The notes under the pieces were generated by a model. It was not told the origin of the DNA, made no database searches, and worked only from the letters and a program-made list of their open reading frames with translations. The position numbers and the translations under genes were made by a program. Positions 459-40,655 of a stretch of 47,979 nucleotides of DNA are shown here, piece by piece. Positions within the stretch are counted from its first letter, which is position 1; each line of letters opens with the position of its first letter. This DNA is from an uncultured Rhodospirillaceae bacterium (GTDB taxonomy: Bacteria; Pseudomonadota; Alphaproteobacteria; GCA-2731375). The stretch covers positions 1-47,979 of the forward strand of contig CAYWYB010000002.1 in NCBI GenBank assembly GCA_964462145.1. The letters are read 5' to 3'.

Positions 459-2497
459 GCCGCCGCCACTTCCACACGCGTGTCGTTGTAGCAGGCACCC
501 TCGGACAAATCGGCCTTGCTGGCCGGGGCCAGGGCGGAAACCGTCTGGCCATTGCTGGTCGTGCGCATCCAGGCGCCCTTGTATGACAGCAGCACACCCT
601 TGGCGACACTGTCGGTAATGCGAAGCGGCAGGAAGACCTCGCCCAGTTCGTTATGGACACGCACCTGCTGACCATCCGCCAGATTCCGGGTGGCGGCGTC
701 ATCGGGATGCATTTCCAGAAATGGTACCGGGTCGGACTTGGCCAGGCCGCCAAACATGGAATTGGTGCGCCAGTTGGACGACGGCGTAATCAAGGCAAAC
801 GGATAGGTAGCCTCCTTGTCCTCGTCCGCCGCCAAGGGTTGGAACAGGGGCAACGGGGCATCGAAGCTGTCCGTCAGGTAAGCCGACTTCAATTCGATCT
901 TGCCGCTTTTGGTCTTAGGCCGCCGCTCGAAGCCAATGCGCGGGCCCATCTCGGACATTGACAGCACGGTGGCGATGGGCAATTCGCTGGGCCGTCGCCC
1001 GCCCAGGCGGGGATCGGTACCGTCGATGGCATCATCCATCAACTCGGCGTCGCTGGCCTGAAAGATCGGATCGTTGAAGCCGAAACGGCGCGCCAGGCGG
1101 CGGAATATTTCCGTGTTCGGCAAGGCCTCGCCAACAGGCGCGATGACCGGCTCGGCACGCTGGAGATATTGCTGGCCATAGGCGCAAAAAATCTCGTCAT
1201 GCTCGAAATGGCTGGCCGCCGGCAATACGATATCGGCGTAGTCCGCAGAGTCCGTCTTGGCCACGTCGATAACCACGGTGAAAACATCTTCCCGCGCCAG
1301 ACCCCGGCGCATGGTGTTCTGATCCGGGTGCACCACCAGGGGATTATGGTTGTAGACCACCAGGCCGCGGATTGGCGGGTCGACGTCGTCATCGGCCAGA
1401 TGCCGGCCCACATCGAGGATATTCAGGGTCCGGGTGCCCTCCGGAATCAAATCCGGACGCTGTAGCTTTTGCATGGTCTTGGGGAACAGACTGCCCGAGC
1501 CGCCCACCAGGCCGCCGGCGGTGTCCTTGAATTTTCCGGTCAGGGCCGGCAGGGCGAATATGGCGCGGCAGCCCGAACCGCCGTTGCGGTTGCGCTCCAA
1601 GCCATTGCCCGCTGCTATTACCGCCGGCTCGGCCAGATGATACCATTCCGCCAGTTGTCTGATATCGTCAGCCGGAACGCCGGTAATCCCGGCCGCGCGT
1701 TCCAGGCTGTAGGGCCGCGCCTCGGCCATGAAATCCTCGGCGCCCTCGACCATATCGGCGATGAACTCCGTATCGAAAGCACCACGCCGCTCCAGCTCGG
1801 CCGCTAGGGCAAAGGCCAAAACAACGTCCGTGCCCGGGCGCGGTGCCAGATGCAGGTCCGCCTGCTCGGCAATCTTGATGCGCTTTGGGTCGACCACCAC
1901 GACCTTGCCGCCCCCATCGCGGATGCGCTGGATCACCGGGGCCAGATGCAGATTGGAGAATGTGACGTTGTTGCCCCAGACCACGATCAGCTTGGCACTT
2001 TCAACTTCCGTCATCTGGGCCCCGGCGATGGCGCCGAAAGTGCCCAGCCAGGCCTCGGTCTTGATGCCGCCGCACATGGGCCGGCGCGAGAGGATGGAAG
2101 CCCCCAATTGGTGGAAAAAGCGCAGATCCATGGAGCCCATGGCCAACAGGCCATGCGGGCCGGCATAATTCAGGGGCAAAATGGCTTCCGGCCCGTGTTC
2201 GGCGATGGCATCAGAAAAGTTTTCATGGATCAGATCCAGGGCTTGCGGCCAGGAAATCACCTCGAACTTGCCTTCGCCCTTGGCGCCGACACGGCGCAAC
2301 GGCTGGGTCAGTCGGTTATCGCCATGAACGAAATCGGGATACAACTTTGATACCTTGCCGCAGATCGCGCCCTCGGTCAGGGGATTGACGCGGGAACCAC
2401 GCACTTTTTCGATCCGCCCGGCGTCGTCAACCGTAACACTCAACGAGCAGGTATCAGGGCAATCAAGGGGGCAGACACTCGGCAATTCCACGCTCAT
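455..2497 (-). CDS. Cytoplasmic molybdopterin-dependent oxidoreductase (680 aa) with an N-terminal 4Fe-4S motif
   Basis: N-terminal motif CPLDCPDTCSLSV (a Cys-cluster motif of the MopB superfamily). The length and conserved blocks are typical of molybdopterin oxidoreductases. No signal or TAT peptide. Confidence 0.85.
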   Translation of the reverse strand: MSVELPSVCPLDCPDTCSLSVTVDDAGRIEKVRGSRVNPLTEGAICGKVSKLYPDFVHGDNRLTQPLRRVGAKGEGKFEVISWPQALDLIHENFSDAIAEHGPEAILPLNYAGPHGLLAMGSMDLRFFHQLGASILSRRPMCGGIKTEAWLGTFGAIAGAQMTEVESAKLIVVWGNNVTFSNLHLAPVIQRIRDGGGKVVVVDPKRIKIAEQADLHLAPRPGTDVVLAFALAAELERRGAFDTEFIADMVEGAEDFMAEARPYSLERAAGITGVPADDIRQLAEWYHLAEPAVIAAGNGLERNRNGGSGCRAIFALPALTGKFKDTAGGLVGGSGSLFPKTMQKLQRPDLIPEGTRTLNILDVGRHLADDDVDPPIRGLVVYNHNPLVVHPDQNTMRRGLAREDVFTVVIDVAKTDSADYADIVLPAASHFEHDEIFCAYGQQYLQRAEPVIAPVGEALPNTEIFRRLARRFGFNDPIFQASDAELMDDAIDGTDPRLGGRRPSELPIATVLSMSEMGPRIGFERRPKTKSGKIELKSAYLTDSFDAPLPLFQPLAADEDKEATYPFALITPSSNWRTNSMFGGLAKSDPVPFLEMHPDDAATRNLADGQQVRVHNELGEVFLPLRITDSVAKGVLLSYKGAWMRTTSNGQTVSALAPASKADLSEGACYNDTRVEVAAA

Positions 2498-2689
2498 CAG
2501 CCTATTCCTTCCTGCAGAATTCAGAACCTGAAAGATCAGCTAAAATTGGCAGGAATAAAAGGGCCATTTTCAACAAATTCATAGGGCCAATAAAATGCCA
2601 AAAAATATGCCGCCTGCGACAATGTAGCACTGGACGAGCGGGGCTTGGTTTGGGACACCTCGGACAGGATTTTAGCCAAGGAAATTGCC

Positions 2690-3256
2690 ATGAGTCATCC
2701 CATCAGCCGCTATCCGGTTCCCGAAATCAACGATCTGCCCGAGGACATCAAGGAGATGGCCCTGGGCATTCAGGAAAAGATCGGCTTCGTGCCCAATGTC
2801 TTTTTGGCGCTGGCCCACCGTCCGGAGGAATTCCGCGCCTTTTTTGCCTATCACGATGCCCTGATGGAGAAAGACAGCGGCGTCTCCAAGGCAGACCGCG
2901 AGATGATCGTGGTCGCCACGTCCGCCGACAACGGCTGCCAATATTGCGTCATGGCCCATGGCGCCATTCTGCGGATCAGAGCCAAGAACCCGCTGTTGGC
3001 CGATCAGGTCGCGGTTAACTACCGCAAGGCCGATATCACGCCGCGGCAGATGGCGATGCTGGACTTCGCCATGAAAGTCTCTAACGACAGCAAATCGATC
3101 TGTGACGAAGACTTCGAGATCCTGCACAGCCATGATTTCTCGGACGAAGACATCTGGGACATCGCTGCCATCACAGGCTTTTTCGGCCTTTCCAACCGCA
3201 TGGCCAGCTTCACCAGCATGCGCCCCAACGATGAATTCTTCGCTATGGGGCGCTGA
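2690..3256 (+). CDS. AhpD-like / carboxymuconolactone decarboxylase family peroxidase-related protein
   Basis: CxxC-containing core (NGCQYCVMAHG) typical of AhpD-fold proteins. I place the start at the ATG at 2690 (MSHPISRY) rather than at the TTG-extended ORF at 2645. Confidence 0.8.
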   Translation: MSHPISRYPVPEINDLPEDIKEMALGIQEKIGFVPNVFLALAHRPEEFRAFFAYHDALMEKDSGVSKADREMIVVATSADNGCQYCVMAHGAILRIRAKNPLLADQVAVNYRKADITPRQMAMLDFAMKVSNDSKSICDEDFEILHSHDFSDEDIWDIAAITGFFGLSNRMASFTSMRPNDEFFAMGR

Positions 3257-3265
3257 ACGGCACGG

Positions 3266-3520
3266 CTAAAGCTTGCCGTACAGCGTGAACAGCCGTTCCC
3301 AGTGGCGTTCGGCGGCCGGTTTGTCGTAGACCTTCCGGCCGGGGAAGGCGAAACCGTGATGCACGCCCGGATGCACCGTCAACTCACCCGGTGATCCCGC
3401 CGCCGCCCCTATTTCGCGCTCGGTATATGGAAAACCCCAATTCAATGGCATACTGGCCGCAACAAGAATTTGGGAGGATGGGCGCATGGGACATACGGAT
3501 GACTGGCTGGCACTAACCAC
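3266..3520 (-). pseudogene. C-terminal remnant of a dienelactone hydrolase family gene
   Basis: Only about 70 aa resemble the C-terminus of a dienelactone hydrolase (HPGVHHGFAF...AAERHWERLF, carrying the catalytic His region). The roughly 150 aa N-terminal part with the nucleophile is absent. The ORF runs into the oppositely oriented amidohydrolase gene. Confidence 0.5.
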
Positions 3521-4529
3521 GGAAGAAACCCTGGAGCCGGATTTGCCGATCTGTGACCCGCATCATCATTTGTGGGATGCGGGATTTGATCCTTCCGCCA
3601 AGTTCCGCACCGAGCAGGTGGAAACCCGCTATCTGTTCCACGAAATGCTGGCGGAGGTGAACAGCGGCCACAACGTCACCTCGACGGTGTTTATCGAATG
3701 CGGCTCCATGTACCGGGGCGACGGGCCGCGCCATATGAAACCCGTGGGCGAGACCGAATTCGTCAACGGCATCGCCGCCATGAGTGCCTCGGGCCAGTAC
3801 GGCGACTGCCGCATCGCCGCCGGCATCGTCGGTCTGGCGGATCTAAACCTGGGCGCCGGCGTAAAAGAGGTGCTGGAAGCGCATATCGCCTGTGGAGCTG
3901 GGCGCTTTCGCGGCATCCGTCATGCGGCCTCCTGGGATGCCTCGGACGAGATCCGCAATTCCCATACCCGGCCGACGCAGCACATGATGGCGGACGCTAC
4001 CTTCCGTGAAGGCTTTGCCCAGTTGGCACCCCTGAACATGAGCTTCGAGGCCTGGTGCTATCACCCGCAAATTTCAGAGGTCACGGATCTGGCCCGCGCT
4101 TTTCCCGATACCACTATGATCCTGAACCATTTCGGCGGCCCCATTGGCACCGGGCCATATGCGGGCAAGCGGGACGAGATCACGGCGCAATGGAAGCTGG
4201 ATGTCGCCGAACTGGCGAAATGCCCCAACGTGGTGGCCAAACTGGGCGGCATCAACATGAAGATCAATGGCTATGACTGGGATCTGCAAAGCCGGCCGCC
4301 ATCCAGCGAGGAACTGGCAGCGGCGACGCGGGTCTATTACGACCATTGCATCGAACATTTCGGGGTCGAGCGTTGCATGTTCGAATCCAATTTCCCGGTC
4401 GATAAACGGACCTGCAGCTATCATGTGCTGTGGAACACCTTCAAGCGCATCGCATCGGGCTGTTCGCCGGCGGAAAAAGCCGCGCTGTTCCATGATACCG
4501 CCGCGCGGGTCTACCGCATCGACGCCTGA
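3486..4529 (+). CDS. Amidohydrolase-2 family metal-dependent hydrolase (347 aa)
   Basis: N-terminal ICDPHHHLWD metal-binding motif of the amidohydrolase_2 (TIM-barrel) family. A GGAGG Shine-Dalgarno sequence lies 7 nt upstream. Confidence 0.8.
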   Translation: MGHTDDWLALTTEETLEPDLPICDPHHHLWDAGFDPSAKFRTEQVETRYLFHEMLAEVNSGHNVTSTVFIECGSMYRGDGPRHMKPVGETEFVNGIAAMSASGQYGDCRIAAGIVGLADLNLGAGVKEVLEAHIACGAGRFRGIRHAASWDASDEIRNSHTRPTQHMMADATFREGFAQLAPLNMSFEAWCYHPQISEVTDLARAFPDTTMILNHFGGPIGTGPYAGKRDEITAQWKLDVAELAKCPNVVAKLGGINMKINGYDWDLQSRPPSSEELAAATRVYYDHCIEHFGVERCMFESNFPVDKRTCSYHVLWNTFKRIASGCSPAEKAALFHDTAARVYRIDA

Positions 4530-4556
4530 TCAAGTTACACAGAGTAGGACGAGACA

Positions 4557-5441
4557 ATGACCGAGAAAATCGCCGTCATCGGCATGGGGCAGATGGGCTC
4601 TGCCATGGCCAGCCGCCTGAGCGAGGCCCAATACGACGTCATGGGCTATGACATCAATGAGGCCACGCGCCAGGCCCTGGAGGCGCAGGGTGTCAACATG
4701 GCCGACAGCCTGGCCGCCGCCCTGGCGGGCCGGACCACTGTCCTGACCTCCCTGCCCGATCCGGCGGCGGTGAAAGGTGCGTGGCTGGGCGACGGCGGCA
4801 TCATCGCCCTAGCGGAAGTAGGCAGCATGCTGATCGAATTGAGTACCATTGACCCCGATTGCATGAAGGAGGTTGGTGCCGCGGCGGCCGCCAAGGATCT
4901 GGCCGTGCTCGACTGCCCCGTCAGCGGCAGCCCGAACGAGGCCGGCACCGGCAAGCTGGTTCTATTGGTCGGCGGCGAGGCCCCGACGTTGGAGCGAGCC
5001 GAGCCCCTATTCGATTTGCTGGGGCAGACCTGGCAGCATACGGGCGCCGTGGGCACGGCCAAGGTTGTCAAGCTGGTCAACAACATGATGTCCATGGGCA
5101 ACGTGCTGGTGGCCTCCGAAGCCTTCGCCCTGGGGGTCGCCGCCGGCGTCGAGCCGCAAAAGCTGTTCGATGTGATTTCGGTCAGCGGCGGCCGTTCGCA
5201 CCATTTCACCAAACGCTTCCCCAACGCCCTGGCCGAGGATTTCGCCCCCGGTTTCAAGATGGAACTGGGCGAAAAGGATCTCTCCCTTGGCGTCGACCTG
5301 GGCCGGGCCATGAAAATGCCCACTCCGGCAGCATCCCTGGCCCGCGAGATGTACGCCCTGGCCGTGGCGGAAGGCTACAAGGGCCAGGATATCGTCGCCC
5401 TGATGGACATGTACCGGCAATGGGCAAATAGCCGGGAATAG
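4557..5441 (+). CDS. NAD(P)-dependent beta-hydroxyacid dehydrogenase (3-hydroxyisobutyrate dehydrogenase family)
   Basis: Rossmann motif IAVIGMGQMGSAMA, the central KVVKLVNNMM block and a C-terminal 6PGDH-like helical domain. It lies 27 nt downstream of the amidohydrolase, so it is probably in the same operon. Confidence 0.85.
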   Translation: MTEKIAVIGMGQMGSAMASRLSEAQYDVMGYDINEATRQALEAQGVNMADSLAAALAGRTTVLTSLPDPAAVKGAWLGDGGIIALAEVGSMLIELSTIDPDCMKEVGAAAAAKDLAVLDCPVSGSPNEAGTGKLVLLVGGEAPTLERAEPLFDLLGQTWQHTGAVGTAKVVKLVNNMMSMGNVLVASEAFALGVAAGVEPQKLFDVISVSGGRSHHFTKRFPNALAEDFAPGFKMELGEKDLSLGVDLGRAMKMPTPAASLAREMYALAVAEGYKGQDIVALMDMYRQWANSRE

Positions 5442-5566
5442 GTACGGGAAGTGCACGAAAGAGTGAGGCAAGAACGCTTGGAAGACTTTGTTGACTTTGC
5501 GCCCGCTAGCGCAATATCAGGGTAACACACGGATTCTTGTCACAAATGGTCACGGCGGGAATGTGC

Positions 5567-6463
5567 ATGAAATATATTTTGGTTTTTTTGCTGGCCTGCA
5601 TTGGTTTAATTGTCGGCACCGACCGAGCCGATGCCGATGATGGGGATCGCTACCTCTATATTTATAATGCACCCGAATCCGCCACCGACCGGCGCTACGA
5701 CTATCAGTGGGAAATTCTGCGGACGGCCTTGGAAAAAACCAAGGGGAAATACGGCGCATACAAACTGCAGCCATCCGCGCCCATGAGCGAAAAGCGCCAG
5801 ACGATCGAGTTGACCAAGGGGTCCGGCGCACTCACCGTGATGCATTTGGGAACGACGCCGGAGTTTGAAAGAGACTTGCTGCCGATCCGCATTCCCGTCG
5901 ACAAGAATCTGTCGGGATACATGGTTTATCTGATCCGCCAGGAAGACCAGGCCAAGTTCAGCGCCGTACAAACCCTTGATGATCTGCGCAGATTCTCAAT
6001 CGGCCAGGGGCTTGGCTGGATTGATGTGGATATTCTGCAGCACAACGACTTCGACGTTGTGACCGGTTCCGATTATGACGGCCTCTTCCACATGCTTCTG
6101 GCGAAACGATTTGATGCCTTTCAACGATCGGCGGCGGAAATCATTGACGAGTTTGAGCAACGAAAAGACAAAATGCCCGACCTGCATATCGAGCAGGACA
6201 TTCTTTTTTACTATCCTCTGCCGATGTACTTTTGGTTTTCCAAATCAGAACAAGGTGAACGCATTGCCGCCCGCGCACGGGAAGGCATGATGGCAATGAT
6301 CGAAGATGGCACCTACGACGCCATATTCAGCAAGTACAACGAATACAAGATTGATCGCCTGCACCTGAGACAACGGCGCTTGTTCAAGATTGAAAACCCG
6401 CTGCTTGTGCCCGAGACCCCCTTTGGTGACAAACGGCTGTGGTTTGACCCCCTAAAAGATTGA
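5567..6463 (+). CDS. Secreted protein with a periplasmic solute-binding-like (family 3) fold, function unknown
   Basis: Signal peptide MKYILVFLLACIGLIVG. Overall resemblance to type-3 SBP-like orphan proteins. Codon usage is noticeably AT-richer than in the neighbouring genes. The start is uncertain (5561 or 5567). Confidence 0.5.
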   Translation: MKYILVFLLACIGLIVGTDRADADDGDRYLYIYNAPESATDRRYDYQWEILRTALEKTKGKYGAYKLQPSAPMSEKRQTIELTKGSGALTVMHLGTTPEFERDLLPIRIPVDKNLSGYMVYLIRQEDQAKFSAVQTLDDLRRFSIGQGLGWIDVDILQHNDFDVVTGSDYDGLFHMLLAKRFDAFQRSAAEIIDEFEQRKDKMPDLHIEQDILFYYPLPMYFWFSKSEQGERIAARAREGMMAMIEDGTYDAIFSKYNEYKIDRLHLRQRRLFKIENPLLVPETPFGDKRLWFDPLKD

Positions 6464-6514
6464 CTTGATGGCGAAATGCCCAGTTCTGGCCACGGACGAC
6501 CGCCGACAGGCAGC

Positions 6515-7321
6515 CTAACTATTCAAACCATCCAGGAATGCCCGCAGTGTCTGGCTGCACGCCCCGGCATGGGAAAACGGCAGACCGTGCTTGGCGTGGG
6601 GGAATATGTGCATTTGCGCATTGGGCAGCCGGTCGTACAGATCGGCCATAGTGGGCACATCGATAAAGGGCGAGGAATCCGGATGCATCAACAACGTCGG
6701 CACCGCCATATCAGCCAACCTTGCGCTTAGATCCGTGCCCACCAGGGCCGCCAACAGGGCCAGAACAGTGCCCGGATCAGCACTGGCCTGCTGGGCCCGG
6801 TACCAGGCGGCCATATCCTCGGACAGGGCGCCGGGGAAAAAGCGATGCTCCATCATGCGATCGGACCAGGCCCCCATGCCCTCCCCCGCACCGCCAATCA
6901 TGTCATGCCAGAAATCCAGATTCCGGATGCCGCCGCCCACATGGGCGCCGTTACTGACCGTCAGGCTGGACAGACGTTCGGGATGCTCAATCGCGGTTTG
7001 CAGGGCCACGGTGCCACCGACGGACTCGCCTACCAGATGGAACTTGGCGCAATCCACCGCATCCGCCAGGGCGATTGTATCCCGCACCATGTCCTTGATC
7101 GAAATCTCGTCGTCGCCGGGTTGTGAGGCGCCATGGCCTGGCAGATCGAACGCCACCAGGCGGTAGCGATCCTGCAAGGCCGCCGCCCAGCCCAGCCAGC
7201 ACCGCCAATTAGCGCCCACGCCATGGTGAAACAGGATGGTTTCCGGCGCCTCGACCCAGGGCGCCGTCAGATCAATGATTTCATAGTGCAGATTGTGTCC
7301 GCCGCTCTTCAGCTCTGGCAT
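6515..7321 (-). CDS. Alpha/beta hydrolase (268 aa)
   Basis: HHGVG oxyanion region, nucleophile elbow GESVGG and a C-terminal His (HAKHGLP). It resembles enol-lactonases and esterases. Confidence 0.85.
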   Translation of the reverse strand: MPELKSGGHNLHYEIIDLTAPWVEAPETILFHHGVGANWRCWLGWAAALQDRYRLVAFDLPGHGASQPGDDEISIKDMVRDTIALADAVDCAKFHLVGESVGGTVALQTAIEHPERLSSLTVSNGAHVGGGIRNLDFWHDMIGGAGEGMGAWSDRMMEHRFFPGALSEDMAAWYRAQQASADPGTVLALLAALVGTDLSARLADMAVPTLLMHPDSSPFIDVPTMADLYDRLPNAQMHIFPHAKHGLPFSHAGACSQTLRAFLDGLNS

Positions 7322-7323
7322 GG

Positions 7324-8214
7324 TTATCCTCCTGCCCGCATGGGCAGATCGTGATTATTGGCCCATTCCGAAAGAGAATTGTCATAGATAGCCGCGTTTT
7401 CGTGCCCCAGCAGGGCCAGGGCAAAGGTATCCACCGTGGCCGCGACGCCGCCGCCGCAATAGGCCAGGACCTGCTGTTCCATGCCGACGCCGGATGCCGC
7501 GAACCTCGCGCGCAGGCCGGCAGCATCAAGAAATGTACCATCGCCGGGGTCCACAAGATCCAGAGCCGGCAGACAGACGCTGCCCGCGATGCCGCCGGGC
7601 CGGCCATAGTGGCGCTCCGACGTCCCTTCATGCTGCTCCCGCGCCAGAGCGTTGACCACCACGGCATCGCGGTCATCCAACGCCGCCAGAACCGCGCCGC
7701 TGTCCACGATCAGCCCTGGCCGCGCCTGGGCGCTGAAGCTGGTAGGGGGATAACGGCAATCGTCTTCCGTACTGACCGCGCGCGCCTCGGCCCGCCACTT
7801 TTGCCAACCGCCGTTCAAAATCGCGGCGTTTTCGAAGCCAAAGGCATACAGCATCCACCACACCCGCGTGGCCCAGGACACCGCGCCCGTGCTGTACAAG
7901 ACAACTCGGCTGTCATCGCCAATACCGCGCGCGGCCACGGCGGCCGCGAAGTCTTCGGCGCTGGGCGTGGTGAAACGAAATGCGCCGGCGGGGTCAGACA
8001 GCTCCGCCTGCAAATCCAGATAACCCGCGCCGGGGATATGCCCCGCCTGGTAGTCCGACAGCGCACTTTCGGCCCGCAGCGTACCGTCCGCATTTGGCAC
8101 CAGATGGGTGGTGCAATCGAACACCCGCACCTTTGGATCAGTCAGGTGATCCGCCAACCAGTCCGTTTCCACCAGAAATTCCGGCCGCGCATATTCGCTC
8201 CCAGATCCACTCAT
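7324..8214 (-). CDS. Tandem-rhodanese sulfurtransferase (thiosulfate/3-mercaptopyruvate type)
   Basis: Two rhodanese domains with the active-site loop YCGGGVAAT in the second. An AAGGAGG Shine-Dalgarno sequence lies 7 nt upstream of the ATG at 8214. The gene ends 2 nt before the start of the hydrolase gene. Confidence 0.85.
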   Translation of the reverse strand: MSGSGSEYARPEFLVETDWLADHLTDPKVRVFDCTTHLVPNADGTLRAESALSDYQAGHIPGAGYLDLQAELSDPAGAFRFTTPSAEDFAAAVAARGIGDDSRVVLYSTGAVSWATRVWWMLYAFGFENAAILNGGWQKWRAEARAVSTEDDCRYPPTSFSAQARPGLIVDSGAVLAALDDRDAVVVNALAREQHEGTSERHYGRPGGIAGSVCLPALDLVDPGDGTFLDAAGLRARFAASGVGMEQQVLAYCGGGVAATVDTFALALLGHENAAIYDNSLSEWANNHDLPMRAGG

Positions 8215-8279
8215 ACTCTCGCCTCCTTGGCCATTTGCCCTTAGCATAGGGCAAACTATCAATGAGGCGAGAGTTGAAC

Positions 8280-9257
8280 ATGAAAATCTGTGTTATTGGC
8301 GCCGGCGCCATGGGCGGCCTGTACGGCGGTCACTTGTTACTGGCCGGCAAGGACGTGCAATTTATTGAAATCCGCCAGGCAGCGGTCGATGCCCTGAACA
8401 ACGGCAGCTACATCTTTGACGGCATTGATGGCGAGCACCGCCTGAAGGCGTCAGCCGCGACCTCCGCCGATGGCCTGCCCGCCGCCGATATCGCCTTCAT
8501 CCATACGGATACCAACAATACCCAGGCGGCCGGCGAACATGCCAAGGCGGTGCTGAAGCCCGAAGGCTGGGCCGTGACCTTTCAAAACGGCGTCGGCAAT
8601 GTGGAAACCTTGTGTGAAATTCTGGGGCCCGAACGGGTGGTCGGCGGTATCAGCTATCACTCCGCCGCCTCGCCCAAGGCGGGCCACGCCACCCATACCA
8701 ATGCCAACAAGACCTGGATTGGCGAATTGCCCGGCGGCGGCAGCGCCCGGGTAGAACAATTGCGCGATCTGCTGGCGGAGGCGAATTTCGACCCGCATAT
8801 CGCCGACGATATCCAATCGGTAATCTGGACCAAGTTCATGCTGAACTGCGCCGTCAATCCGATGTGCGCCATAACCGGTTTACGCTCGGGCGAGGTCGGT
8901 TCGGATGCGGCGGCGGCTGAGATGCAGGAGCTGATCCTGGATGAAACCCTGGCCGTGATCGCCGCCAAGGGCATCACCTTGATGGACCCGGACCCCAAGG
9001 CATCCATAAAGCGTATCCTGGGCCGGGCCTTTAACAAGCCATCGATGCTACAGCATATGGAAGCAGGCCAGCGAACCGAGATCGATAGCCTGAACGGCGC
9101 CGTGGTCCGCGAAGGCGCAGCCTTGGGCATTCCCACGCCCTACAATCATGCCCTGACCATGCTGATCAAAGCCCGCAATGCCAACATGGTCCGGCAAATG
9201 CACGAACCGCCCATTGATTACGCGGCCCTGGAAGCGGCCCTACAGGCGGAACAATAG
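8280..9257 (+). CDS. 2-dehydropantoate 2-reductase (ApbA/PanE) family oxidoreductase
   Basis: N-terminal MKICVIGAGAMGGLYGG dinucleotide fold and the C-terminal ApbA_C-type helical domain (PSMLQHMEAGQRTEID). Confidence 0.8.
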   Translation: MKICVIGAGAMGGLYGGHLLLAGKDVQFIEIRQAAVDALNNGSYIFDGIDGEHRLKASAATSADGLPAADIAFIHTDTNNTQAAGEHAKAVLKPEGWAVTFQNGVGNVETLCEILGPERVVGGISYHSAASPKAGHATHTNANKTWIGELPGGGSARVEQLRDLLAEANFDPHIADDIQSVIWTKFMLNCAVNPMCAITGLRSGEVGSDAAAAEMQELILDETLAVIAAKGITLMDPDPKASIKRILGRAFNKPSMLQHMEAGQRTEIDSLNGAVVREGAALGIPTPYNHALTMLIKARNANMVRQMHEPPIDYAALEAALQAEQ

Positions 9258-11981: not shown

Positions 11982-12476
11982 TTAGGTATTCCGGTCAATA
12001 AAGACCTGAAAAACCGCCACCATATCGTCCGCCATCATCTGCACCGCGGGCATGCTGCGCTGCTCGACCGGCAGGCCGACCTGTTCGCGCAATTCCTGAT
12101 TAGACATGCTGCGAGCCCATTTCGGATCGTGCTCCGTCAGGCGTCCAAAGAAATCCGCGCTGTCGCTGGCCGCACCGGCATAAAACATGCGCGCGATGCC
12201 GACCTGATACATGGTCGCCACGCACATGGAACAGGGCTCGCCGGAGGTATAAAGATCGGCACCCTTAAGAGAGATGACACCGAGCCGGCGGCAGGCATCG
12301 CGGATCGCCTCAACCTCACCATGGGAGGTCGGATCGTGCTCCGCGGTCGCCCGGTTCAGCCCTTCGCCGACGATCTTGCCATCCATGACGATAACGGCGC
12401 CATATGGCAGGGTGCCGGGGGCATCGACGCTTTCAGCGGCAATCTCAATAGCGCGGGCCATGAATTTCTCATGCAT
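11982..12476 (-). CDS. Zinc-dependent nucleoside/guanine deaminase (CDA fold)
   Basis: HGEVEAI and PCSMC zinc-binding motifs. A GGAGG Shine-Dalgarno sequence lies 7 nt upstream of the ATG at 12476. Confidence 0.85.
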   Translation of the reverse strand: MHEKFMARAIEIAAESVDAPGTLPYGAVIVMDGKIVGEGLNRATAEHDPTSHGEVEAIRDACRRLGVISLKGADLYTSGEPCSMCVATMYQVGIARMFYAGAASDSADFFGRLTEHDPKWARSMSNQELREQVGLPVEQRSMPAVQMMADDMVAVFQVFIDRNT

Positions 12477-25786: not shown

Positions 25787-27502
25787 ATGAGCGGCGGGCC
25801 GGACGTCGTCATCGGGCAATGTTCCATTGCCGGGCGTAAGGCGCGCAACGATGATTCCTATGGCGTCTTGATTCCCGAGGGTCCTCTGCTTTTGACCAAG
25901 GGCATCGCCATGGCCATCGCGGACGGCATGTCCTCGTCCGAAGCGGCGAAAGAGGCCAGCGAAACCTGCGTCAAAAGCTTTCTCGACGACTATTTCTCCA
26001 CCCATGAAAGCTGGACCGCGAAAAAATCCGTCGCCGCCGTACTAAAGGCCACCAACAACTGGCTCTATGCCCAGGGACAAACCGTCTATCTTTCGAACCG
26101 TGGCATGGTCACGACGTTTTCGGGCCTCGTCCTGAAGGCCGGCATGGCGCACGTCTTCCATGCCGGGGATACCAGGATATCGTTACTTAGGGATGGCACG
26201 TTGGAGCCTCTGACCCGCGACCACCGGCTCCGCGTCTCGCGCAATCAGGAGTACTTGTCGCGCGCCTTGGGCATCGATCCCGACCTGGAAGTGGATTACC
26301 GCAGCGAGGCGTTGGCCCAGGGCGATGTCCTGGTATTCACCTCCGACGGTGTGCACGACCATGTTGATCCGGGACAAATCTGCAAGATCGTCGGGGGCGC
26401 CGGCGATGATCTGGACGCCGCCGCCCGTGCCATTGTGCAAAGCGCCTTCGACAATGCCAGCGAGGACAATCTCACTTGCCAGCTTGTCAAGGTGCTTGAT
26501 CCAGGCCGAATTGATGAAAACAGTCATCTTCGGCAATTGACGGCGTTGCCGTTTCCACCGGACCTATCGCCGGGCATGACGTTCGAGGGCTATCACATCA
26601 TTGCTGAGTTGCATGCCAGCAAACGCGTTCAGGTCTATTTGGCGGCTGATGTGGCGAGCAAGGCAAGGGTGGTCATCAAAACGCCCTCGGTCAACTACGA
26701 GGACGACCCGGCCTATATCGAAATGTTCACGCGCGAGGAATGGGTCGGGCGCCGCCTGCAAAGTCCCCATGTTGTCCGCGTGGTACAGGATCGGGGGCCC
26801 AAGCGTTTTCTCTACTACGTAACCGAATTCATTGACGGCGATACCTTGCGGATTTGGATGGAGAAGAACCCAAAACCGAAAACATCAGAGGTTCGCCGCA
26901 TCGCCGAACAGATCGCCATCGGTCTTCGCGCCTTTCACCGTAAGGATATGGTGCATCAGGACCTAAAGCCCGAGAACATCATCATTGACGAATACGGTAG
27001 CGCAAAAATCATAGATTTTGGTTCGACGGGCATTGCGGGTTTGGATGAAATTGACAGCCCATCTGATATCCCAACCTTGGTTGGCACCCTGGGTTATACG
27101 GCGCCCGAATACCATCTGGGGGAGAAGCCGACCAATCGTAGCGACATTTTTTCCCTCGGTGTCATCGTCTATGAAATGCTGACCGGCAAGCTGCCCTATG
27201 GTGAAGGATTTACCAGTGCGAAGGCAGCCTCGCGACTGACATCTACCGCCGCTTCCACTCATGATCCGTCGATACCAACTTGGGTCTCGGCAACCTTGGC
27301 CAAGGCAACCCATTGCGATCCTGGCAAACGCTACGATGCGCTATCTGCTTTTATTTACGACCTCGGCCGGCCTAATTCGAACTTGGAACAAGTCTCGGTT
27401 CGCCCGTTGATAGAGCGTCATCCGCTAGCATTCTGGAAATGGCTGGCTGTTGCTTCGTTGTTAATCAATCTTGCTCTTCTCTATGCCCTGAACGCCCTAT
27501 AA
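25787..27502 (+). CDS. Bifunctional PP2C-type Ser/Thr phosphatase plus Hanks-type Ser/Thr protein kinase, C-terminally membrane-anchored (571 aa)
   Basis: The N-terminal approximately 240 aa carry PP2C motifs (RNDDSYG, IADGMSS, VFTSDGVHD, ASEDNLT). The kinase has VIKTP (Lys), HQDLKPENI, DFG and GTLGYTAPE motifs. A terminal TM helix is present (FWKWLAVASLLINLALLYAL). The gene starts 22 nt after narK. Confidence 0.85.
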   Translation: MSGGPDVVIGQCSIAGRKARNDDSYGVLIPEGPLLLTKGIAMAIADGMSSSEAAKEASETCVKSFLDDYFSTHESWTAKKSVAAVLKATNNWLYAQGQTVYLSNRGMVTTFSGLVLKAGMAHVFHAGDTRISLLRDGTLEPLTRDHRLRVSRNQEYLSRALGIDPDLEVDYRSEALAQGDVLVFTSDGVHDHVDPGQICKIVGGAGDDLDAAARAIVQSAFDNASEDNLTCQLVKVLDPGRIDENSHLRQLTALPFPPDLSPGMTFEGYHIIAELHASKRVQVYLAADVASKARVVIKTPSVNYEDDPAYIEMFTREEWVGRRLQSPHVVRVVQDRGPKRFLYYVTEFIDGDTLRIWMEKNPKPKTSEVRRIAEQIAIGLRAFHRKDMVHQDLKPENIIIDEYGSAKIIDFGSTGIAGLDEIDSPSDIPTLVGTLGYTAPEYHLGEKPTNRSDIFSLGVIVYEMLTGKLPYGEGFTSAKAASRLTSTAASTHDPSIPTWVSATLAKATHCDPGKRYDALSAFIYDLGRPNSNLEQVSVRPLIERHPLAFWKWLAVASLLINLALLYALNAL

Positions 27503-31636: not shown

Positions 31637-33031
31637 TCATTCGGAGAAAGGGTCTTCAACACGATGCGCGCAGGTCGTACGCGGACACAGCCGGCAGCTG
31701 GGGCCAACTTCCTCGACAGGCACAGATGGATCGGGGGAATACACCGTCAGCTGCGCGTCATCTTCCCGCATCGCAATCATATCGGTTAGATAATGCCGCG
31801 GCTTGCCAAAGCCCGTTGGCCCTTGATTGCGGGCCCGCGCCACGAAGACAAACCGCGCGCCCGACGGGAACAAGGCCCGTTGCCGAATGACCGCTTCGGG
31901 GGATTGCTGGGCCCGGTACAAGACCCAGAGCGGGCAGGCAGCGGCATAACGGGGCACGGCCAAGCCATCAAGCTTCAGCATCTCGATGATGGTACCGGCG
32001 GCGTTAGCCCTGAGGTAGCCGAACCTAGGCAGGCCGGCCTGACGCGGCAGGGCGGTCAGGCGGTGGCAGACGGCATCGACTTCCACCGAGAACGCCTCGG
32101 CCAGGGCTTCTATGTCATAGCGCAATTCACTTGCCCGCCGTGTAAAGACCGGCATCGGCATCAGGATCGCGCCCACGGCATAGTTCGCCAAGGATTGCCG
32201 GGCCCGCGTATGCGCCGCCGATGTATTGACCAGGCTGTGTCCATGCACGATGCCGCCGATGGTATCGCCGAAATGTTCCTTGGCGATCACATCCGCCTTT
32301 TGCCGGCGCGAAATGGGATGGGGTTCCGTCAACAGATCGTGCAGGCCGCCCGCACTTTTTTCGATCTGATCGAAATGGTTTTCGTTGGCATCGAATAGGG
32401 CTTCGACCTCATCCAATGGGGTAAGAACGCGATCGGCATCTTCCGCCTTGTCCAAATAGGCGGCCAATGCCTCGGCCACATCCGAGAGAGCGCGCACCTC
32501 CTCGTCAATGATCTGATCGAACCGGTCCCGGCGGTCGGGCGCGATATCGGGATACTCTATGAGGATTTCCACCGCCGATCTGACGGCCGCGATGCGCGAG
32601 AGCATGCGATGGATCGTTTCACTGAGAAAAGGATCGTTAGATAACCGGTCCGACAGGGTCTCGGCCCTTGATATGGCTTCCTGCTCGGACCGCGCCAGGG
32701 CGGCGACCCCTCTGGCCCAGCCCGGAAACCGGCCGATAAATTCGCTGCTGCGCGGTTCCTCAATATCCAGGGATTGCAGGCTCGGCAAACGGGCGATTTC
32801 GGTCAGCGCATCCAGCAACCGTCCTTCCGACGCACTCGCAAGATTATCAATCGACAGGCCCAGGGCCTCGGCCGTCTTGCGCAACAACGTTCCCGCGATG
32901 CGGCGCTTATTCCATTCGATGAGATTGAGATAGGAGGGTGAGATGCCGATCTTTTGGGCAAGCTCGACCTGGGTAATTCCCACTTCGCGCCGGCGCTGGC
33001 GTATACGCGGCCCCAGAATGGTATCCGCCAT
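31637..33031 (-). CDS. XRE-HTH / ImmA-IrrE-like (DUF955) / DUF2083 regulator of the short-chain acyl-CoA responsive ScfR family (RamB/PrpR/PccR-like)
   Basis: N-terminal HTH (LGPRIRQRRREVGITQVELAQKIGISPSYLNLIEWNKR), 464 aa in length, and a C-terminal Cys cluster (AACPLW...CRLCPRTTCAHR) as in the Fe-S/CoA-binding RamB/PrpR group. Confidence 0.75.
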   Translation of the reverse strand: MADTILGPRIRQRRREVGITQVELAQKIGISPSYLNLIEWNKRRIAGTLLRKTAEALGLSIDNLASASEGRLLDALTEIARLPSLQSLDIEEPRSSEFIGRFPGWARGVAALARSEQEAISRAETLSDRLSNDPFLSETIHRMLSRIAAVRSAVEILIEYPDIAPDRRDRFDQIIDEEVRALSDVAEALAAYLDKAEDADRVLTPLDEVEALFDANENHFDQIEKSAGGLHDLLTEPHPISRRQKADVIAKEHFGDTIGGIVHGHSLVNTSAAHTRARQSLANYAVGAILMPMPVFTRRASELRYDIEALAEAFSVEVDAVCHRLTALPRQAGLPRFGYLRANAAGTIIEMLKLDGLAVPRYAAACPLWVLYRAQQSPEAVIRQRALFPSGARFVFVARARNQGPTGFGKPRHYLTDMIAMREDDAQLTVYSPDPSVPVEEVGPSCRLCPRTTCAHRVEDPFSE

Positions 33032-38518: not shown

Positions 38519-38857
38519 TCAGTCTCCGACAAACTGACCCGGTTTGGCGATCGGGGTTAGGGGTAAAATCAACCAGGTACCATTAGCCGTCCTCGCGGTC
38601 ACCGCCTGCAGCACCGCGCTGGGATTACGCCGGCGCTGCTGTTCCGCCCTTCCGGACAAGCAGGTCAAGGTCAGTATTTCGCCTGGAAGCATGAAATTTC
38701 GCATACGGTCATCTGGCAGATAGCCGGGCGTCAGGACCTCGGCCAGGCGATCCACAGTGCTGTAGGACCAATGAGAAGCGCGGCTGTTGCCAGCCACGCA
38801 AATCAGATTTGAGGCATCATAGGGCAAGGCCGGATCCTTTGGATGGTCATTATCCAT
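38519..38857 (-). CDS. Hypothetical protein (about 112 aa) downstream of the S24 repressor
   Basis: An ORF with no recognisable motif. Its start is uncertain (ATG at 38857 or TTG at 38887). A 16-bp palindromic operator lies 4 nt upstream of the ATG. Confidence 0.4.
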   Translation of the reverse strand: MDNDHPKDPALPYDASNLICVAGNSRASHWSYSTVDRLAEVLTPGYLPDDRMRNFMLPGEILTLTCLSGRAEQQRRRNPSAVLQAVTARTANGTWLILPLTPIAKPGQFVGD

Positions 38858-38860
38858 GAG

Positions 38861-38876
38861 TATACGATATCGTATA
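38861..38876. promoter_or_regulatory. Perfect 16-bp palindrome TATACGATATCGTATA (operator candidate) with an adjacent TTGCAA box
   Basis: It is self-complementary over all 16 nt. TTGCAA lies at 38882-38887. A related CGTACGTAT lies at 38901-38909. Confidence 0.6.
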
Positions 38877-38938
38877 TTATTTTGCAATAGAATTGATGCG
38901 CGTACGTATTTCAGCAGCCGCTTTTGACGAATCGGAGT

Positions 38939-39595
38939 CTAGCGGTAAACCCGATGGGCGCCGACGATCAAATGCATGGCAGCGACCTCTTCGGGGGCAA
39001 GGCGGATTTCCTTGGGAGGGTTGAATTGCTCCAAGATTATGGCGCGCTGAGTGCGCCGCCGAAGCAACTTGATAAAGGCCCGGTCGTCGGTGGTCTGCAC
39101 CACAACATAATCATCCGGCTGGACCGGTATGGTCGGATCCACTTCGACGATTTCACGCGGCTCGTAACGCGGCCGCATGGAGGAATTATGCACGATCAGA
39201 GCATAGGCGCTGGCCACTCCGATCAAATTCGCCGGCCGGCCCGCATAGCCCGAAACCGTACCATTATCAAGGAATATACCGTCTTCCCCCGCCTCCGCAT
39301 GGCCCAGAATTGGTAAATCCCTGGTCCGCCCCGGTGGTCCGGGCAGCTCAGTCGCGACTAGATGATCCGACATTCCCGGCACCCGCCATGGCTGCTCCTC
39401 CGGCTCGGCGTAAGCCGCCATGGATAGTCCAGCCAAGGCGGCAAGCGCCTGCGCCTGGTCGCGGTCCGGCAACTGCCGCCCCGCCTCCCATCGGGAGACC
39501 GTTGCCTGGGTCGTCCCCATGAACGCCGCGAAACGCGCCTGCGTCTCTTGCCGCTCGCGGCGCAACCGCCGCACGATCTCTGCCCAATCAATCAT
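38939..39595 (-). CDS. LexA/CI-like repressor: XRE HTH plus an S24 self-cleaving peptidase domain (218 aa)
   Basis: HTH (ETQARFAAFMGTTQATVSRWEAGRQ), a candidate Ala-Gly cleavage site (HAEAGEDG), and the S24 Ser/Lys dyad context (NSSMRPRYEP ... FIKLL). Confidence 0.85.
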   Translation of the reverse strand: MIDWAEIVRRLRRERQETQARFAAFMGTTQATVSRWEAGRQLPDRDQAQALAALAGLSMAAYAEPEEQPWRVPGMSDHLVATELPGPPGRTRDLPILGHAEAGEDGIFLDNGTVSGYAGRPANLIGVASAYALIVHNSSMRPRYEPREIVEVDPTIPVQPDDYVVVQTTDDRAFIKLLRRRTQRAIILEQFNPPKEIRLAPEEVAAMHLIVGAHRVYR

Positions 39596-39660
39596 GGGAC
39601 ATAAGATATATCGCATTATATACGAAGGCAAATTATTATACGTATTTTTTTCTTGCAATT

Positions 39661-39676
39661 TATACGAGCTCGTATA
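39661..39676. promoter_or_regulatory. Perfect 16-bp palindrome TATACGAGCTCGTATA (operator candidate) in the divergent repressor / GcrA-like gap
   Basis: It is self-complementary over all 16 nt. It is flanked by TTGCAA (39653-39658) and lies 10 nt before the ATG at 39687. Further partial sites are ATACGTAT (39638-39645) and TATACG (39619-39624). Two TATAAT boxes on the minus strand (39615-39620 and 39635-39640) face the repressor gene. Confidence 0.65.
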
Positions 39677-39686
39677 TTTTAATGCC

Positions 39687-40037
39687 ATGACACAGCACCC
39701 AACCCGTACCGCTTTCCAACCTACTCAGTTAAGTGTTCCAAGCTCAGAGCATCCTGCCCCAGCTTATTCCGACGGCAACCATGAACCTGAACCAGAACTC
39801 GCCACGAATTGGGCAAAACGCCGCCCAGAACAAAACATAGTCGGCTGCCGCTGGATTGATGGCGACGTATCCGACGGGCAATGGCGCTATTGCCAGCGTC
39901 CGCGAATACCCGGCAAATCTTATTGCGCCACGCACCATCTCCGCAGTATCGACCCGGCTCGCGACAGGGAATTCACTGTCGAACAGATCAGCCGCGAATC
40001 ACACCTGACCGGCCGGCCGCTACTGGACGAGGCATAG
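39687..40037 (+). CDS. Protein with only the GcrA C-terminal-like motif (116 aa), lacking the GcrA N-terminal DNA-binding domain
   Basis: The C-terminal segment CRWIDGDVSDGQWRYCQRPRIPGKSYCATHH matches the C-W-P-x-G ... F-C ... G-x-x-Y-C-x-x-H pattern of the GcrA C-terminal region. The N-terminal 50 aa are Pro/Glu-rich with no HTH. Confidence 0.55.
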   Translation: MTQHPTRTAFQPTQLSVPSSEHPAPAYSDGNHEPEPELATNWAKRRPEQNIVGCRWIDGDVSDGQWRYCQRPRIPGKSYCATHHLRSIDPARDREFTVEQISRESHLTGRPLLDEA

Positions 40038-40655
40038 ATGGCCAGCAGCGGGCACGGGATGAAGCCATCCGGCGGTGGAGTACGGAATCGCCGCCAGCGA
40101 AGGCGTCGCCTGAAACTTAGCCCAGGGCAAGCAGATGCGGCGATTGAGCCATCGCGCTGGCGCATGCAGCATCACGCCCTGGACGAAGACCGCCCCGCCC
40201 TAAGCCGTATACAGATCGCCTGCGAAGATGACGGCGGTCCGCCCAGCTATCCCATGCGCGCCGTCGATACCGTTCAAGCCCTGTTGAACAAGGGCCGCAT
40301 CGACAGCCAGGCGGCAGCGGCGGCACAGAAATTCGAGGCAATCTTTCAGCGCGCCAGCCTTGACGGCCTTGCCAGCCGGGATATCAGGCGAACACCTGTG
40401 CCGTTCGACCCCGGAAACAGCGAGCCATATGGTATCTTGCGCGCCCGTGACGACGTTTGGGCGGCCATGCACGCCCTGGGGGGGATCAACACCCCCGGCG
40501 CCAATATTGCCTGGGACGTACTGGGCCTGGGCATAACCATCAAGGCCCATGCGGAACGTTGCCAATTCGGCAACGGCCGCTCCCTCAATCCCATGACCGC
40601 GACTGGTATTCTGGTACAATCCTGCTATACCCTGTCGGTGCATTTTGGCAAGTAA
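40038..40655 (+). CDS. Hypothetical protein with an Arg-rich N-terminus and a C-terminal HTH-like region (DUF6456-like, 205 aa)
   Basis: Its ATG immediately follows the TAG of the upstream gene. The layout is RNRRQRRRR, then LLNKGRIDSQAAAAAQKFEAIFQRASL, then a C-terminal GANIAWDVLGLGITIKAHAER segment. This resembles alphaproteobacterial DUF6456 proteins as I recall them. Confidence 0.4.
   Translation: MASSGHGMKPSGGGVRNRRQRRRRLKLSPGQADAAIEPSRWRMQHHALDEDRPALSRIQIACEDDGGPPSYPMRAVDTVQALLNKGRIDSQAAAAAQKFEAIFQRASLDGLASRDIRRTPVPFDPGNSEPYGILRARDDVWAAMHALGGINTPGANIAWDVLGLGITIKAHAERCQFGNGRSLNPMTATGILVQSCYTLSVHFGK

Follow-up and report, generated by a model that had tools for sequence, protein, structure and literature searches.

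A conserved chromosomal cassette of phage-type regulatory parts in uncultured marine Rhodospirillaceae: an S24 repressor, its predicted operators, and a DUF6456-superfamily protein

INTRODUCTION

In Caulobacter crescentus, the core promoter of gafYZ contains two GGAA-N4-TTCC inverted repeats, which are bound by the LexA-like repressor RogA, a protein in which a helix-turn-helix (HTH) domain is joined to an S24-like domain (PMC9632790). The two products of that operon form a complex and act on RNA polymerase, GafY by binding sigma-70 and GafZ as an antiterminator that is loaded at the promoter of the gene transfer agent (GTA) cluster (PMC11150451). Homologs of RogA are reported to be enriched in several orders, including the Rhodospirillales, and GTA induction in Caulobacter is linked to stationary phase (PMC9632790). 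GafA, a direct activator of the Rhodobacter capsulatus GTA, is annotated with the domain DUF6456 (PMC9638019, PMC9765227). What relieves RogA repression is an open question in GTA biology. The subject of this paper is a four-gene cassette that looks like the RogA-GafYZ scheme in a form closer to that of a phage. The cassette lies in a 47,979-nucleotide stretch of DNA, here called the window, from an uncultured Rhodospirillaceae bacterium (assembly GCA_964462145.1, contig CAYWYB010000002.1).

The first of the four genes encodes a CI/LexA-type repressor of 218 aa (38939 to 39595, minus strand) with HTH_3 and Peptidase_S24 domains. Downstream of it on the same strand is an open reading frame (ORF) for a small clade-specific protein, hyp102, of about 102 aa (38519 to 38827). 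Genes 3 and 4 are divergent from these, on the plus strand: gene 3 (39687 to 40037) encodes a 116-aa protein with a variable N terminus and a conserved core that carries a C3H motif like that of the GcrA sigma-interacting domain (SID), and gene 4 (40038 to 40655) encodes a 205-aa protein that we place, as a divergent member, in the DUF6456 (GafA C-terminal/GafZ) family.

RogA-GafYZ of C. crescentus is the closest known system, a comparison that we made by published description and not by sequence (PMC9632790; PMC11150451). Both systems join a repressor of the HTH plus S24 type (218 aa here and 213 aa in RogA) to N4 inverted repeats placed across the promoter from which two activator genes are read; the activators are encoded back to back, and the second of them is assigned, in the cassette at the superfamily level, to the GafA C-terminal/GafZ (DUF6456) family. 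There are also differences. The cleavage residues are missing from RogA (CCNA_00080), but the cassette repressor keeps them, its Ala-Gly, Ser, and Lys being invariant; rogA lies apart from gafYZ, but the repressor gene and the activator operon of the cassette are divergent neighbors; the half-site is GGAA in Caulobacter and TATACG here; the first activator has a DnaA-like HTH in Caulobacter and is a GcrA-SID-like C3H protein here; and the cassette has an extra, operator-controlled small gene.

We read the whole as a vertically inherited, phage-derived cassette in which a minimal immunity region has been fused to a late-gene regulator and which controls phage-derived targets, and we give this reading a probability of roughly 0.55. 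In the mechanism that we propose, a dimer of the repressor would bind 16-bp operators of the form TATACG-N4-CGTATA. One operator, OL1, would hold the leftward promoter of the ~102-aa protein, and a weaker one, OR2, would give the repressor control over its own synthesis. DNA damage would act through RecA to cause self-cleavage of the repressor at its Ala-Gly bond by a Ser/Lys dyad, opening all three promoters. The rightward promoter, P_R, would then fire a leaderless, translationally coupled bicistronic mRNA for proteins 3 and 4, and the two proteins would jointly target RNA polymerase, one serving as a sigma cofactor and the other as an activator or antiterminator that binds DNA. The pair would thereby switch on genes elsewhere, most plausibly late-type genes of phage origin (a GTA or cryptic-prophage cluster), in the manner of RogA-GafYZ.

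RESULTS AND DISCUSSION

The four genes are held together under purifying selection

A scan of a genome collection with an alignment of protein 4, the product of gene 4, returned 17 loci, 16 of which belong to metagenome-assembled genomes of uncultured marine Rhodospirillaceae or alphaproteobacteria (from Saanich Inlet, the Black Sea, the Caspian Sea, the Arabian Sea, and the deep ocean). All four genes stand in the same order in 13 of the 17, and these 13, together with the window, form the 14-locus set used throughout. An M48 peptidase gene adjoins the cassette in 11 of the 13 loci, and manC does so as well in 7. Synonymous divergence (dS) from the window ranges from 0.13 to >2 and parallels that of the flanking housekeeping genes. 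The ratio of nonsynonymous to synonymous divergence (dN/dS) is 0.06 to 0.21 for the repressor gene, 0.10 to 0.26 for the small gene, 0.14 to 0.32 for gene 3, and 0.13 to 0.31 for gene 4. Because dN/dS is low and dS tracks that of the flanking genes, the cassette has been inherited vertically for a long time under purifying selection and is neither a recent insertion nor the decaying edge of a prophage.

We consider it very improbable that the cassette is a nonfunctional, decaying remnant or the margin of an ordinary prophage. That explanation would account for the phage-type parts, and a complete phage with an analogous layout does exist (contig L020, described below), but the four genes occupy the same site in 14 loci at a dS of 0.8 to >2, every one of them under purifying selection and with the operators preserved. 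There is no structural gene or integrase adjacent to the cassette, no att-like repeats were found flanking it, and no tRNA gene lies beside it, the only one in the window being 20 kb distant; its GC content is host-like except for dips in the intergenic stretches. The sequence-only reading, an earlier annotation of this DNA made from its letters and reading frames alone, had described the window as free of phage structural genes, and the parts of it that were checked (several small ORFs fell outside the scan) do hold housekeeping genes and no such genes. It had also allowed that relatives might show the module to border on an intact prophage of the usual kind; in the flanks of up to ~6 kb around the orthologs, there are no phage genes.

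In two loci, L003 (positions 1 to 2300) and L009 (1 to 3400), gene 4 stands beside the M48 peptidase gene, and other genes take the place of the remaining three members of the cassette: a helicase-like gene in L003, and a ParA-like gene and others in L009.

Palindromic operators lie inside two promoters

The sequence-only reading had pointed to two perfect TATACG-N4-CGTATA 16-mers, and both are present as exact palindromes: OL1, TATACGATATCGTATA, at 38861 to 38876, and OR1, TATACGAGCTCGTATA, at 39661 to 39676. The window has two copies of the pattern, and when it was shuffled 100 times with dinucleotides preserved, no shuffle had even one. We built a symmetric position weight matrix (PWM) from the orthologous sites, each time leaving out the locus to be scanned, and set a threshold of 9 bits. 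Across the 47,979 bases of the window, the only sites scoring at least 9 bits were those at 38861 (29 bits), 39661 (24 bits), and 39619 (10 bits); with all loci included in the matrix, the scores were 31.8, 32.2, and 16.4 bits, respectively. The third of these sites, OR2 (TATACGAAGGCAAATT, 39619 to 39634), has a good left half-site and a degenerate right half-site.

Conservation follows the same lines. OL1 is found at the same position in 14 of 14 loci, and sites of at least 9 bits in these loci lie nearly all in the two intergenic regions of the cassette, with four weak outliers (9.8 to 13.9 bits) elsewhere. The half-sites are kept across the set, and the central four bases vary freely (AGCT, AGTT, TTAG, GATT, AAAT, TATT, TTTT, ATAT, CTTT, and others), a pattern that is the signature of a dimeric protein contacting two half-sites. 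OR2 starts 42 bp, or four helical turns, upstream of the start of OR1 in 11 of 14 loci; a third right-hand site, which starts 30 bp upstream of OR1, is present in 10 of 14 and degenerate in the window; and 3 of 14 have a weak second left-hand site. Thus, of two partial sites singled out earlier in the divergent gap, the one at 39619 is the conserved OR2, and the other, ATACGTAT at 39638, falls below the PWM threshold and was rejected as an operator of the window, although it is at the corresponding place that most orthologs have the third site.

The rightward promoter P_R (39653 to 39680, plus strand) has a −35 element, TTGCAA, at 39653 to 39658, a 16-nt spacer, and a −10 element, TATTTT, at 39675 to 39680, which is TATTAT in several orthologs. 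The −35 element ends 2 nt before OR1, which takes up the spacer and runs into the first bases of the −10 element, so that RNA polymerase would be excluded by bound repressor. A promoter scan placed the leftward promoter P_L at 38859 to 38887 on the minus strand, with TTGCAA at 38887 to 38882, a 17-nt spacer, and TATACT at 38864 to 38859. Its TTGCAA is 5 nt from OL1, which covers the spacer and the −10 element; in the orthologs, P_L reads TTGCAA-17-TATAAT, and OL1 again lies over the spacer and −10 element. The TTGCAA boxes noticed earlier beside both operators are real, with the right-hand coordinate corrected to 39653 to 39658 (the left-hand box is at 38882 to 38887).

The −10 element of P_R ends 6 nt before the A of the gene 3 start codon, the ATG at 39687, and in an alignment of the 14 loci this gap is 6 to 7 nt. 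The bases within the gap are unconserved and hold no Shine-Dalgarno sequence, and the start itself, ATG-AC(A/x), is conserved. We infer that the rightward mRNA is leaderless, with its predicted first base at the A of this ATG. The earlier suggestion of a leaderless mRNA fits this geometry, in which the distance from the −10 element to the ATG is conserved to within 1 nt and leaves no room for a Shine-Dalgarno sequence.

The start of the small gene is different. Its open frame extends upstream to an ATG at 38857 and a TTG at 38887, and the sequence-only reading had placed each palindrome 3 to 10 nt from an ATG and made the small protein 112 aa long. The ATG at 38857 does lie 3 nt from OL1, but it comes one base after the −10 element of P_L and so cannot be on the transcript; we rejected it as the start codon. 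The conserved start is the TTG at 38827, 7 nt downstream of a Shine-Dalgarno sequence, AAGGA (38835 to 38839, minus strand). In the leaders of the orthologous genes, a conserved GAAGGA is followed by TTG or GTG, and gene calls elsewhere begin M/L-PYDASNL. The small gene thus probably starts at TTG 38827, and its product would be ~102 aa long, not 112.

The 91-bp divergent gap between the repressor gene and gene 3 is 71% identical per column, and its conserved blocks coincide with the predicted regulatory elements. Among these is a TATAAT on the minus strand (39620 to 39615), conserved in position as TAWAAT and overlapping the left half of OR2, which we tentatively take to be the −10 element of an autoregulated repressor promoter; autoregulation is proposed because of this overlap.

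The operators, then, exist, are nonrandom, are evolutionarily constrained, and lie inside two promoters of the sigma-70 type. Across 14 loci at saturated synonymous divergence, they have held both their half-sites and their exact place in the two promoters. The sequence-only reading had one repressor controlling itself, the small gene, and the gene 3/4 pair. Phylogenetic footprinting supports that scheme, with binding as the predicted step, and we hold this wiring of repressor, operators, and promoters to be highly probable.

Start-to-start, OL1 and OR1 are exactly 800 bp apart in four loci (the window, L001, L002, and L010) and 794 to 945 bp apart in the others.

Comparison of the operator region with phage lambda

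The arrangement can be set beside that of lambda (cI, OL/PL, OR/PR/PRM, and Q). In both, a gene for a repressor of the S24 self-cleaving type lies between a leftward and a rightward repressed promoter, the right-hand operators are graded, one of them overlapping the (here putative) repressor promoter, and a member of a late-regulator family is found downstream. The small gene, leftward of the repressor gene and with its own operator, recalls the lambda PL operon. Unlike lambda, the cassette has no Cro-like gene, in that the first rightward gene lacks an HTH and no other ORF is present in the 91-bp gap; it is also without an N gene and without genes for replication, lysis, or structural proteins; the gene for the putative late regulator follows the immunity promoter directly; and the whole sits at a fixed chromosomal locus and is not a mobile prophage. 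The analogy with lambda OR proposed earlier is incomplete for lack of a Cro-like gene, and for the same reason no bistable switch is indicated.

We also scanned IMG/VR and a metagenome collection for the pattern TTGCAA-N(1-6)-TATACG-N4-CGTATA, an exact-match and hence insensitive scan. The metagenome collection gave 112 loci, of which 4 were from this lineage, each of them the cassette itself (L047, L075, L096, and L110); the rest either matched by chance, in DNA of different GC content, or were XRE systems unrelated to the cassette. No operator-bearing promoter beyond the cassette was found in either the viral or the metagenome collection by this insensitive scan, and the regulon of the repressor on that account appears to be local.

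Four phage or metagenome contigs of 46 to 52% GC (L031, ~2030 to 2100; L034, ~540 to 610; L055, ~560 to 650; and L124, ~12060 to 12150) show a near-identical promoter-operator design, TTGCAA-N5-TATACGATATCGTATAAT with a second site, TATACGATAACGAATA, upstream, beside a small HTH gene. These contigs are probably of Firmicutes type, and tblastn detected no homology between them and the window repressor; they may represent convergent use of a TATAC-type operator embedded in a −10 element.

The repressor is related to phage C repressors and has an intact S24 catalytic set

The repressor matched the Pfam families HTH_3 (E = 7e-8; 32.8 bits against a cut-off of 23) and Peptidase_S24 (E = 1e-9; 38.4 bits against a cut-off of 23.3) and the phage family phrog_4, "transcriptional repressor" (E = 3e-23). 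The Ala-Gly pair (A102-G103, in LPILGHAEA-GEDG), Ser139 (in NSSM), and Lys176 (in FIKLL) align with A84-G85, S119, and K156 of Escherichia coli LexA, in which the segment opposite the Ala-Gly stretch is LPLVGRVAA-GEP. Across 14 orthologs, the hinge varies, but there is no variation in the Ala-Gly pair, the Ser, the Lys, or the HTH stretch GTTQATVSRWE, the presumed site of the recognition helix. Judged by these residues, the S24 catalytic set is intact.

The nearest named relatives are two C repressors, that of Rhizobium phage RHph_Y25, with 32% identity across 95% of its length (E = 3e-21), and that of phage 16-3, with 37% identity in the S24 domain (E = 7e-19). These systems and the cassette have in common the domain architecture and an early operon that is divergent from the repressor gene; the rhizobial repressor genes, however, adjoin cro-like genes in ordinary, complete phage genomes. 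The operator of phage 16-3 is ACAA-N4/6-TTGT, unlike that of the cassette.

With LexA and the SOS system the cassette shares an S24 domain with Ala-Gly, Ser, and Lys, a 16-bp palindromic operator, and predicted autoregulation, but its repressor has an HTH_3 domain and not the LexA winged helix, and its operators appear to be confined to this locus. That the repressor might be the LexA of the host was ruled out: the NCBIfam lexA model gave E = 0.08 and 12.5 bits against a cut-off of 111. Boxes of the host LexA form GTTC-N7-GTTC showed no enrichment, with 25 matches against 29 expected.

From the conserved residues alone, we lean slightly toward RecA-dependent induction of repressor cleavage. 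The same cassette might instead answer to a non-SOS input, such as stationary phase, an anti-repressor, or a ligand, with the residues serving slow, RecA-independent self-cleavage or turnover. RogA, of the same domain layout, is not described as RecA cleaved, and the GTA that it governs is linked to stationary phase (PMC9632790); nor, with the host LexA box not enriched at the locus, is there an independent sign of SOS wiring. Against this, 14 orthologs have kept the Ala-Gly, Ser, and Lys without change although dS is saturated, which would be hard to explain were cleavage irrelevant, and the nearest relatives are phage C repressors of the inducible type. We thus regard a non-SOS input as somewhat unlikely.

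Protein 4 and its phage relatives

An exhaustive profile search found 771 relatives of protein 4, 339 of them at E ≤ 1e-10. Of the best 150 relatives, 107 matched DUF6456 (best E = 1.5e-10), with the domain C-terminal in position; among 21 close homologs from the clade, 4 did so (best E = 7.5e-5). Most of the relatives' DUF6456 scores are below the gathering cut-off of 26.3 bits. This supports membership of protein 4 in the DUF6456 superfamily, at the superfamily level.

An AlphaFold2 model built from the 150-sequence alignment had a predicted local distance difference test (pLDDT) score of 83 and a predicted template modeling (pTM) score of 0.72; one built from 21 close sequences (pLDDT, 46) was unusable. 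As modeled, the protein would begin with an Arg-rich, disordered N-terminal tail, continue through a small alpha/beta region, and end in a helical, HTH-like C-terminal domain. The model's resemblances to sigma-4/extracytoplasmic function (ECF) domains and to Q21 were weak, and we did not rely on them. In the BFVD viral structure library, it matched uncharacterized phage proteins, one labeled DUF6456 and one from Rhodobacter phage RcRhea. A profile search of PDB with protein 4 gave nothing useful. When GenBank phages were searched by tblastn, neither protein 4 nor the small protein had a match, and a search of plasmids with protein 4 was likewise empty.

Gene order around the phage homologs was more informative. 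A prophage of Azospirillum cavernae (L017, which is also the IMG/VR provirus L019) encodes a homolog 45% identical over 141 residues, placed between a replication-type gene and the genes for the small and large terminase subunits. Outside the clade, protein 4 has its closest relative (43% identity across 170 residues) on L020, a 46-kb marine phage contig with the gene order S24 repressor, cro-like HTH protein, RusA, DNA methylase, full-length GcrA, primase, a 204-aa protein, the protein 4 homolog, small terminase, large terminase, and portal. On a third phage contig, the homolog lies two genes upstream of the genes for the terminase large subunit and portal. A position just before the terminase genes is the place of a late-gene regulator such as lambda Q, and it agrees with the antiterminator role of GafZ. 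With moderate confidence, we assign protein 4 to the late-gene-type activators or antiterminators.

Residues 1 to 40 of protein 4 (40038 to 40160) include the stretch RNRRQRRRRLK, present in all clade orthologs and absent from the phage homolog P0025; that it recalls the arginine-rich RNA-binding motifs of N-type antiterminators is pure speculation. The pairing of the methylase and full-length GcrA genes in the early operon of L020 (positions 812 to 8315; JGI 3300025300, Ga0208181_1000159, a marine temperate phage) looks like a phage-borne epigenetic module.

A second, unrelated chromosomal module with housekeeping flanks was seen in L151 (4800 to 6900; ENA ERZ25039521 contig_21176, 211 kb). 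There, a gene for an HTH plus S24 repressor with the Ala-Gly, Ser, and Lys present is divergent from a 65-aa ORF and a gene for a 299-aa DUF6456 protein, so that linked S24 repressor and DUF6456 modules may form a recurrent class.

Protein 3 carries a motif of the sigma-interacting domain of GcrA

The GcrA SID comprises residues 108 to 173 and binds sigma region 2 (PMC7403470). Protein 3 shares with it the motif C-x-W-x2-G-D...C...Y-C-x2-H. The N-terminal half of protein 3 is poorly conserved, and the core, GCRWIDGDV..W.YCQ.PR.PG.SYC..HH.RS, is invariant or nearly so. All 12 of 12 orthologs matched positions ~110 to 142 of the 155-position Pfam GcrA profile, the best at E = 2e-6 and below the gathering score; protein 3 itself reached 20 bits against the Pfam cut-off of 26.9 and 13 bits against the cut-off of 280 for the NCBIfam model sig70cofacGcrA. 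Its motif aligns with residues 35 to 72 of 5yix_B, the crystallized GcrA SID, at E = 1.2, a motif-level match, and a profile search of PDB with protein 3 gave nothing useful. Neither the GcrA DNA-binding domain nor any HTH match was detected in protein 3, which, because it is without that domain, is not an ortholog of GcrA. A sigma-binding module has plausibly been retained.

The ATG of gene 4 immediately follows the stop codon of gene 3, and one natural protein joins the two families. P0109 (297 aa; L153, 595 to 1488) carries a GcrA-like C3H motif (residues 11 to 40) fused to a C-terminal DUF6456; protein 3 matches it by BLASTP (E = 2e-5), and it is the sole such fusion among 150 relatives of protein 4. 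This "Rosetta stone" fusion and the abutting stop and start codons speak for proteins 3 and 4 functioning as a unit, and the C3H motif of the GcrA SID may be a portable partner of DUF6456.

The L012 locus has a break at ~5595 to 5620: the conserved ATG-ACA with which the GcrA-like gene begins is not in frame with the conserved ORF that follows, which may reflect a sequencing error or a genuine frameshift.

What the cassette may control

Several findings count against the account of the cassette given at the outset. The window protein 4 itself has no direct Pfam match at E ≤ 1, including DUF6456 (PF20057), and no NCBIfam family match, so that the earlier label "DUF6456-like" holds at the profile level, through its relatives, but not for this protein directly. 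A PDB fold search with the protein 4 model returned nothing significant (best E = 0.66). For GafZ, too, no significant structural match in PDB was reported (PMC11150451). The similarity of protein 3 to GcrA is limited to one motif and lies below the Pfam cut-off, and, going by the published description of GafY and its DnaA-like HTH, protein 3 is not a GafY homolog. No convincing −35 element was recognized for the repressor's own promoter. Catalytic residues by themselves do not prove RecA dependence, and RogA is not known to be cleaved. Gene 4 occurs without the other three genes in L003 and L009, so that the cassette need not always be complete, unless these two assemblies are rearranged or chimeric. 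Lastly, no phage or GTA structural genes, and no targets of the activators, were found in the window or in the ortholog flanks of up to ~6 kb.

The sequence-only reading had listed a domesticated prophage regulator, a GTA-type activator locus, and a defense or toxin switch as outputs. The first two are favored by what we found, and the third is not. We put forward a GTA or cryptic phage cluster as the output only tentatively. To our knowledge, no GTA has been described in this lineage, and clusters of the RcGTA type are not established there. A bolder version, which we think unlikely, would make the cassette a cis-linked, RecA-cleavable form of RogA-GafYZ in which a GcrA-derived, sigma-70-binding protein stands in for GafY and SOS would lead, through a GafZ-type antiterminator, to GTA-like or phage-derived particles in a widespread lineage of deep water and oxygen-minimum zones.

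The cassette might also be self-contained, with an output in host physiology: the ~102-aa protein would be a stress effector, for example, a division inhibitor, and the RNA polymerase-binding pair would reprogram transcription, with no genes for phage-like particles taking part. Small SOS-induced division inhibitors are known in alphaproteobacteria (didA/DriD; PMC9632790), the small protein has its own promoter, predicted to be repressor controlled, and no phage or GTA genes are visible near any ortholog. Yet wherever the context or function of a protein 4 relative is known, that relative is a regulator of late genes or of a GTA (PMC11150451), and the small protein shows no homology or feature that suggests such an activity. 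Its orthologs are restricted to this lineage (19 matches); it has no informative match in Pfam, NCBIfam, PDB, or PADLOC, its sole match being a weak one to a PHROG family of unknown function (E = 0.003). This alternative seems to us quite unlikely.

HTH regulators are commonly found beside defense systems, and the repressor HTH gave weak PADLOC matches to RmrA and CapH (E = 3e-6 to 6e-3), so that we also considered an anti-phage defense or toxin switch in which the repressor would sense infection or DNA damage and release a toxic or abortive-infection effector, with the small protein as the effector or the gene 3/4 pair as a decoy regulator; a copy of a late regulator could in principle hinder related phages. 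The PADLOC effector models, however, match none of the four cassette proteins, PADLOC gave no match of any kind for the three besides the repressor, no known toxin fold or family was detected, and the cassette occupies a fixed syntenic site with housekeeping neighbors and not a variable island. Such a switch is improbable.

If the cassette is, as we favor, a domesticated immunity region with its late regulator, it suggests a possible origin of RogA-GafYZ from the same temperate-phage parts, and it offers a route to ask whether DNA damage directly licenses GafZ-type regulators. It should be a tractable system, because the positions of its operators and promoters and of the predicted leaderless start are known to single-base precision. 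Were the output not a GTA, the locus would still be a clean case of the long-term domestication of phage regulatory parts in an abundant marine lineage.

Other features of the window

The neighbors of the cassette in the window include genes for assimilatory nitrate/nitrite reductase, hisD, murA, a liv-type ATP-binding cassette (ABC) transporter, manC, the M48 peptidase, an asparaginase-type hydrolase, and major facilitator superfamily (MFS) transporters. No Rfam family matched at the locus. We considered manC as a target of the cassette and rejected it, because several orthologous loci have no manC downstream of gene 4. A promoter-like sequence, ATGACC-16-TACAAT with an extended −10 element (TG), lies within the 3' end of gene 4 (40593 to 40620), upstream of manC.

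At 31637 to 33031, the window encodes a 464-aa regulator with an HTH_3 domain, an IrrE/M78-like peptidase domain, and a ScfRs C-terminal domain (the short-chain fatty acyl-coenzyme A regulator type), and this gene is divergent from the liv-type transporter operon. A single ORF of 571 aa at 25787 to 27502 joins an N-terminal PP2C phosphatase domain to a C-terminal Ser/Thr protein kinase domain.

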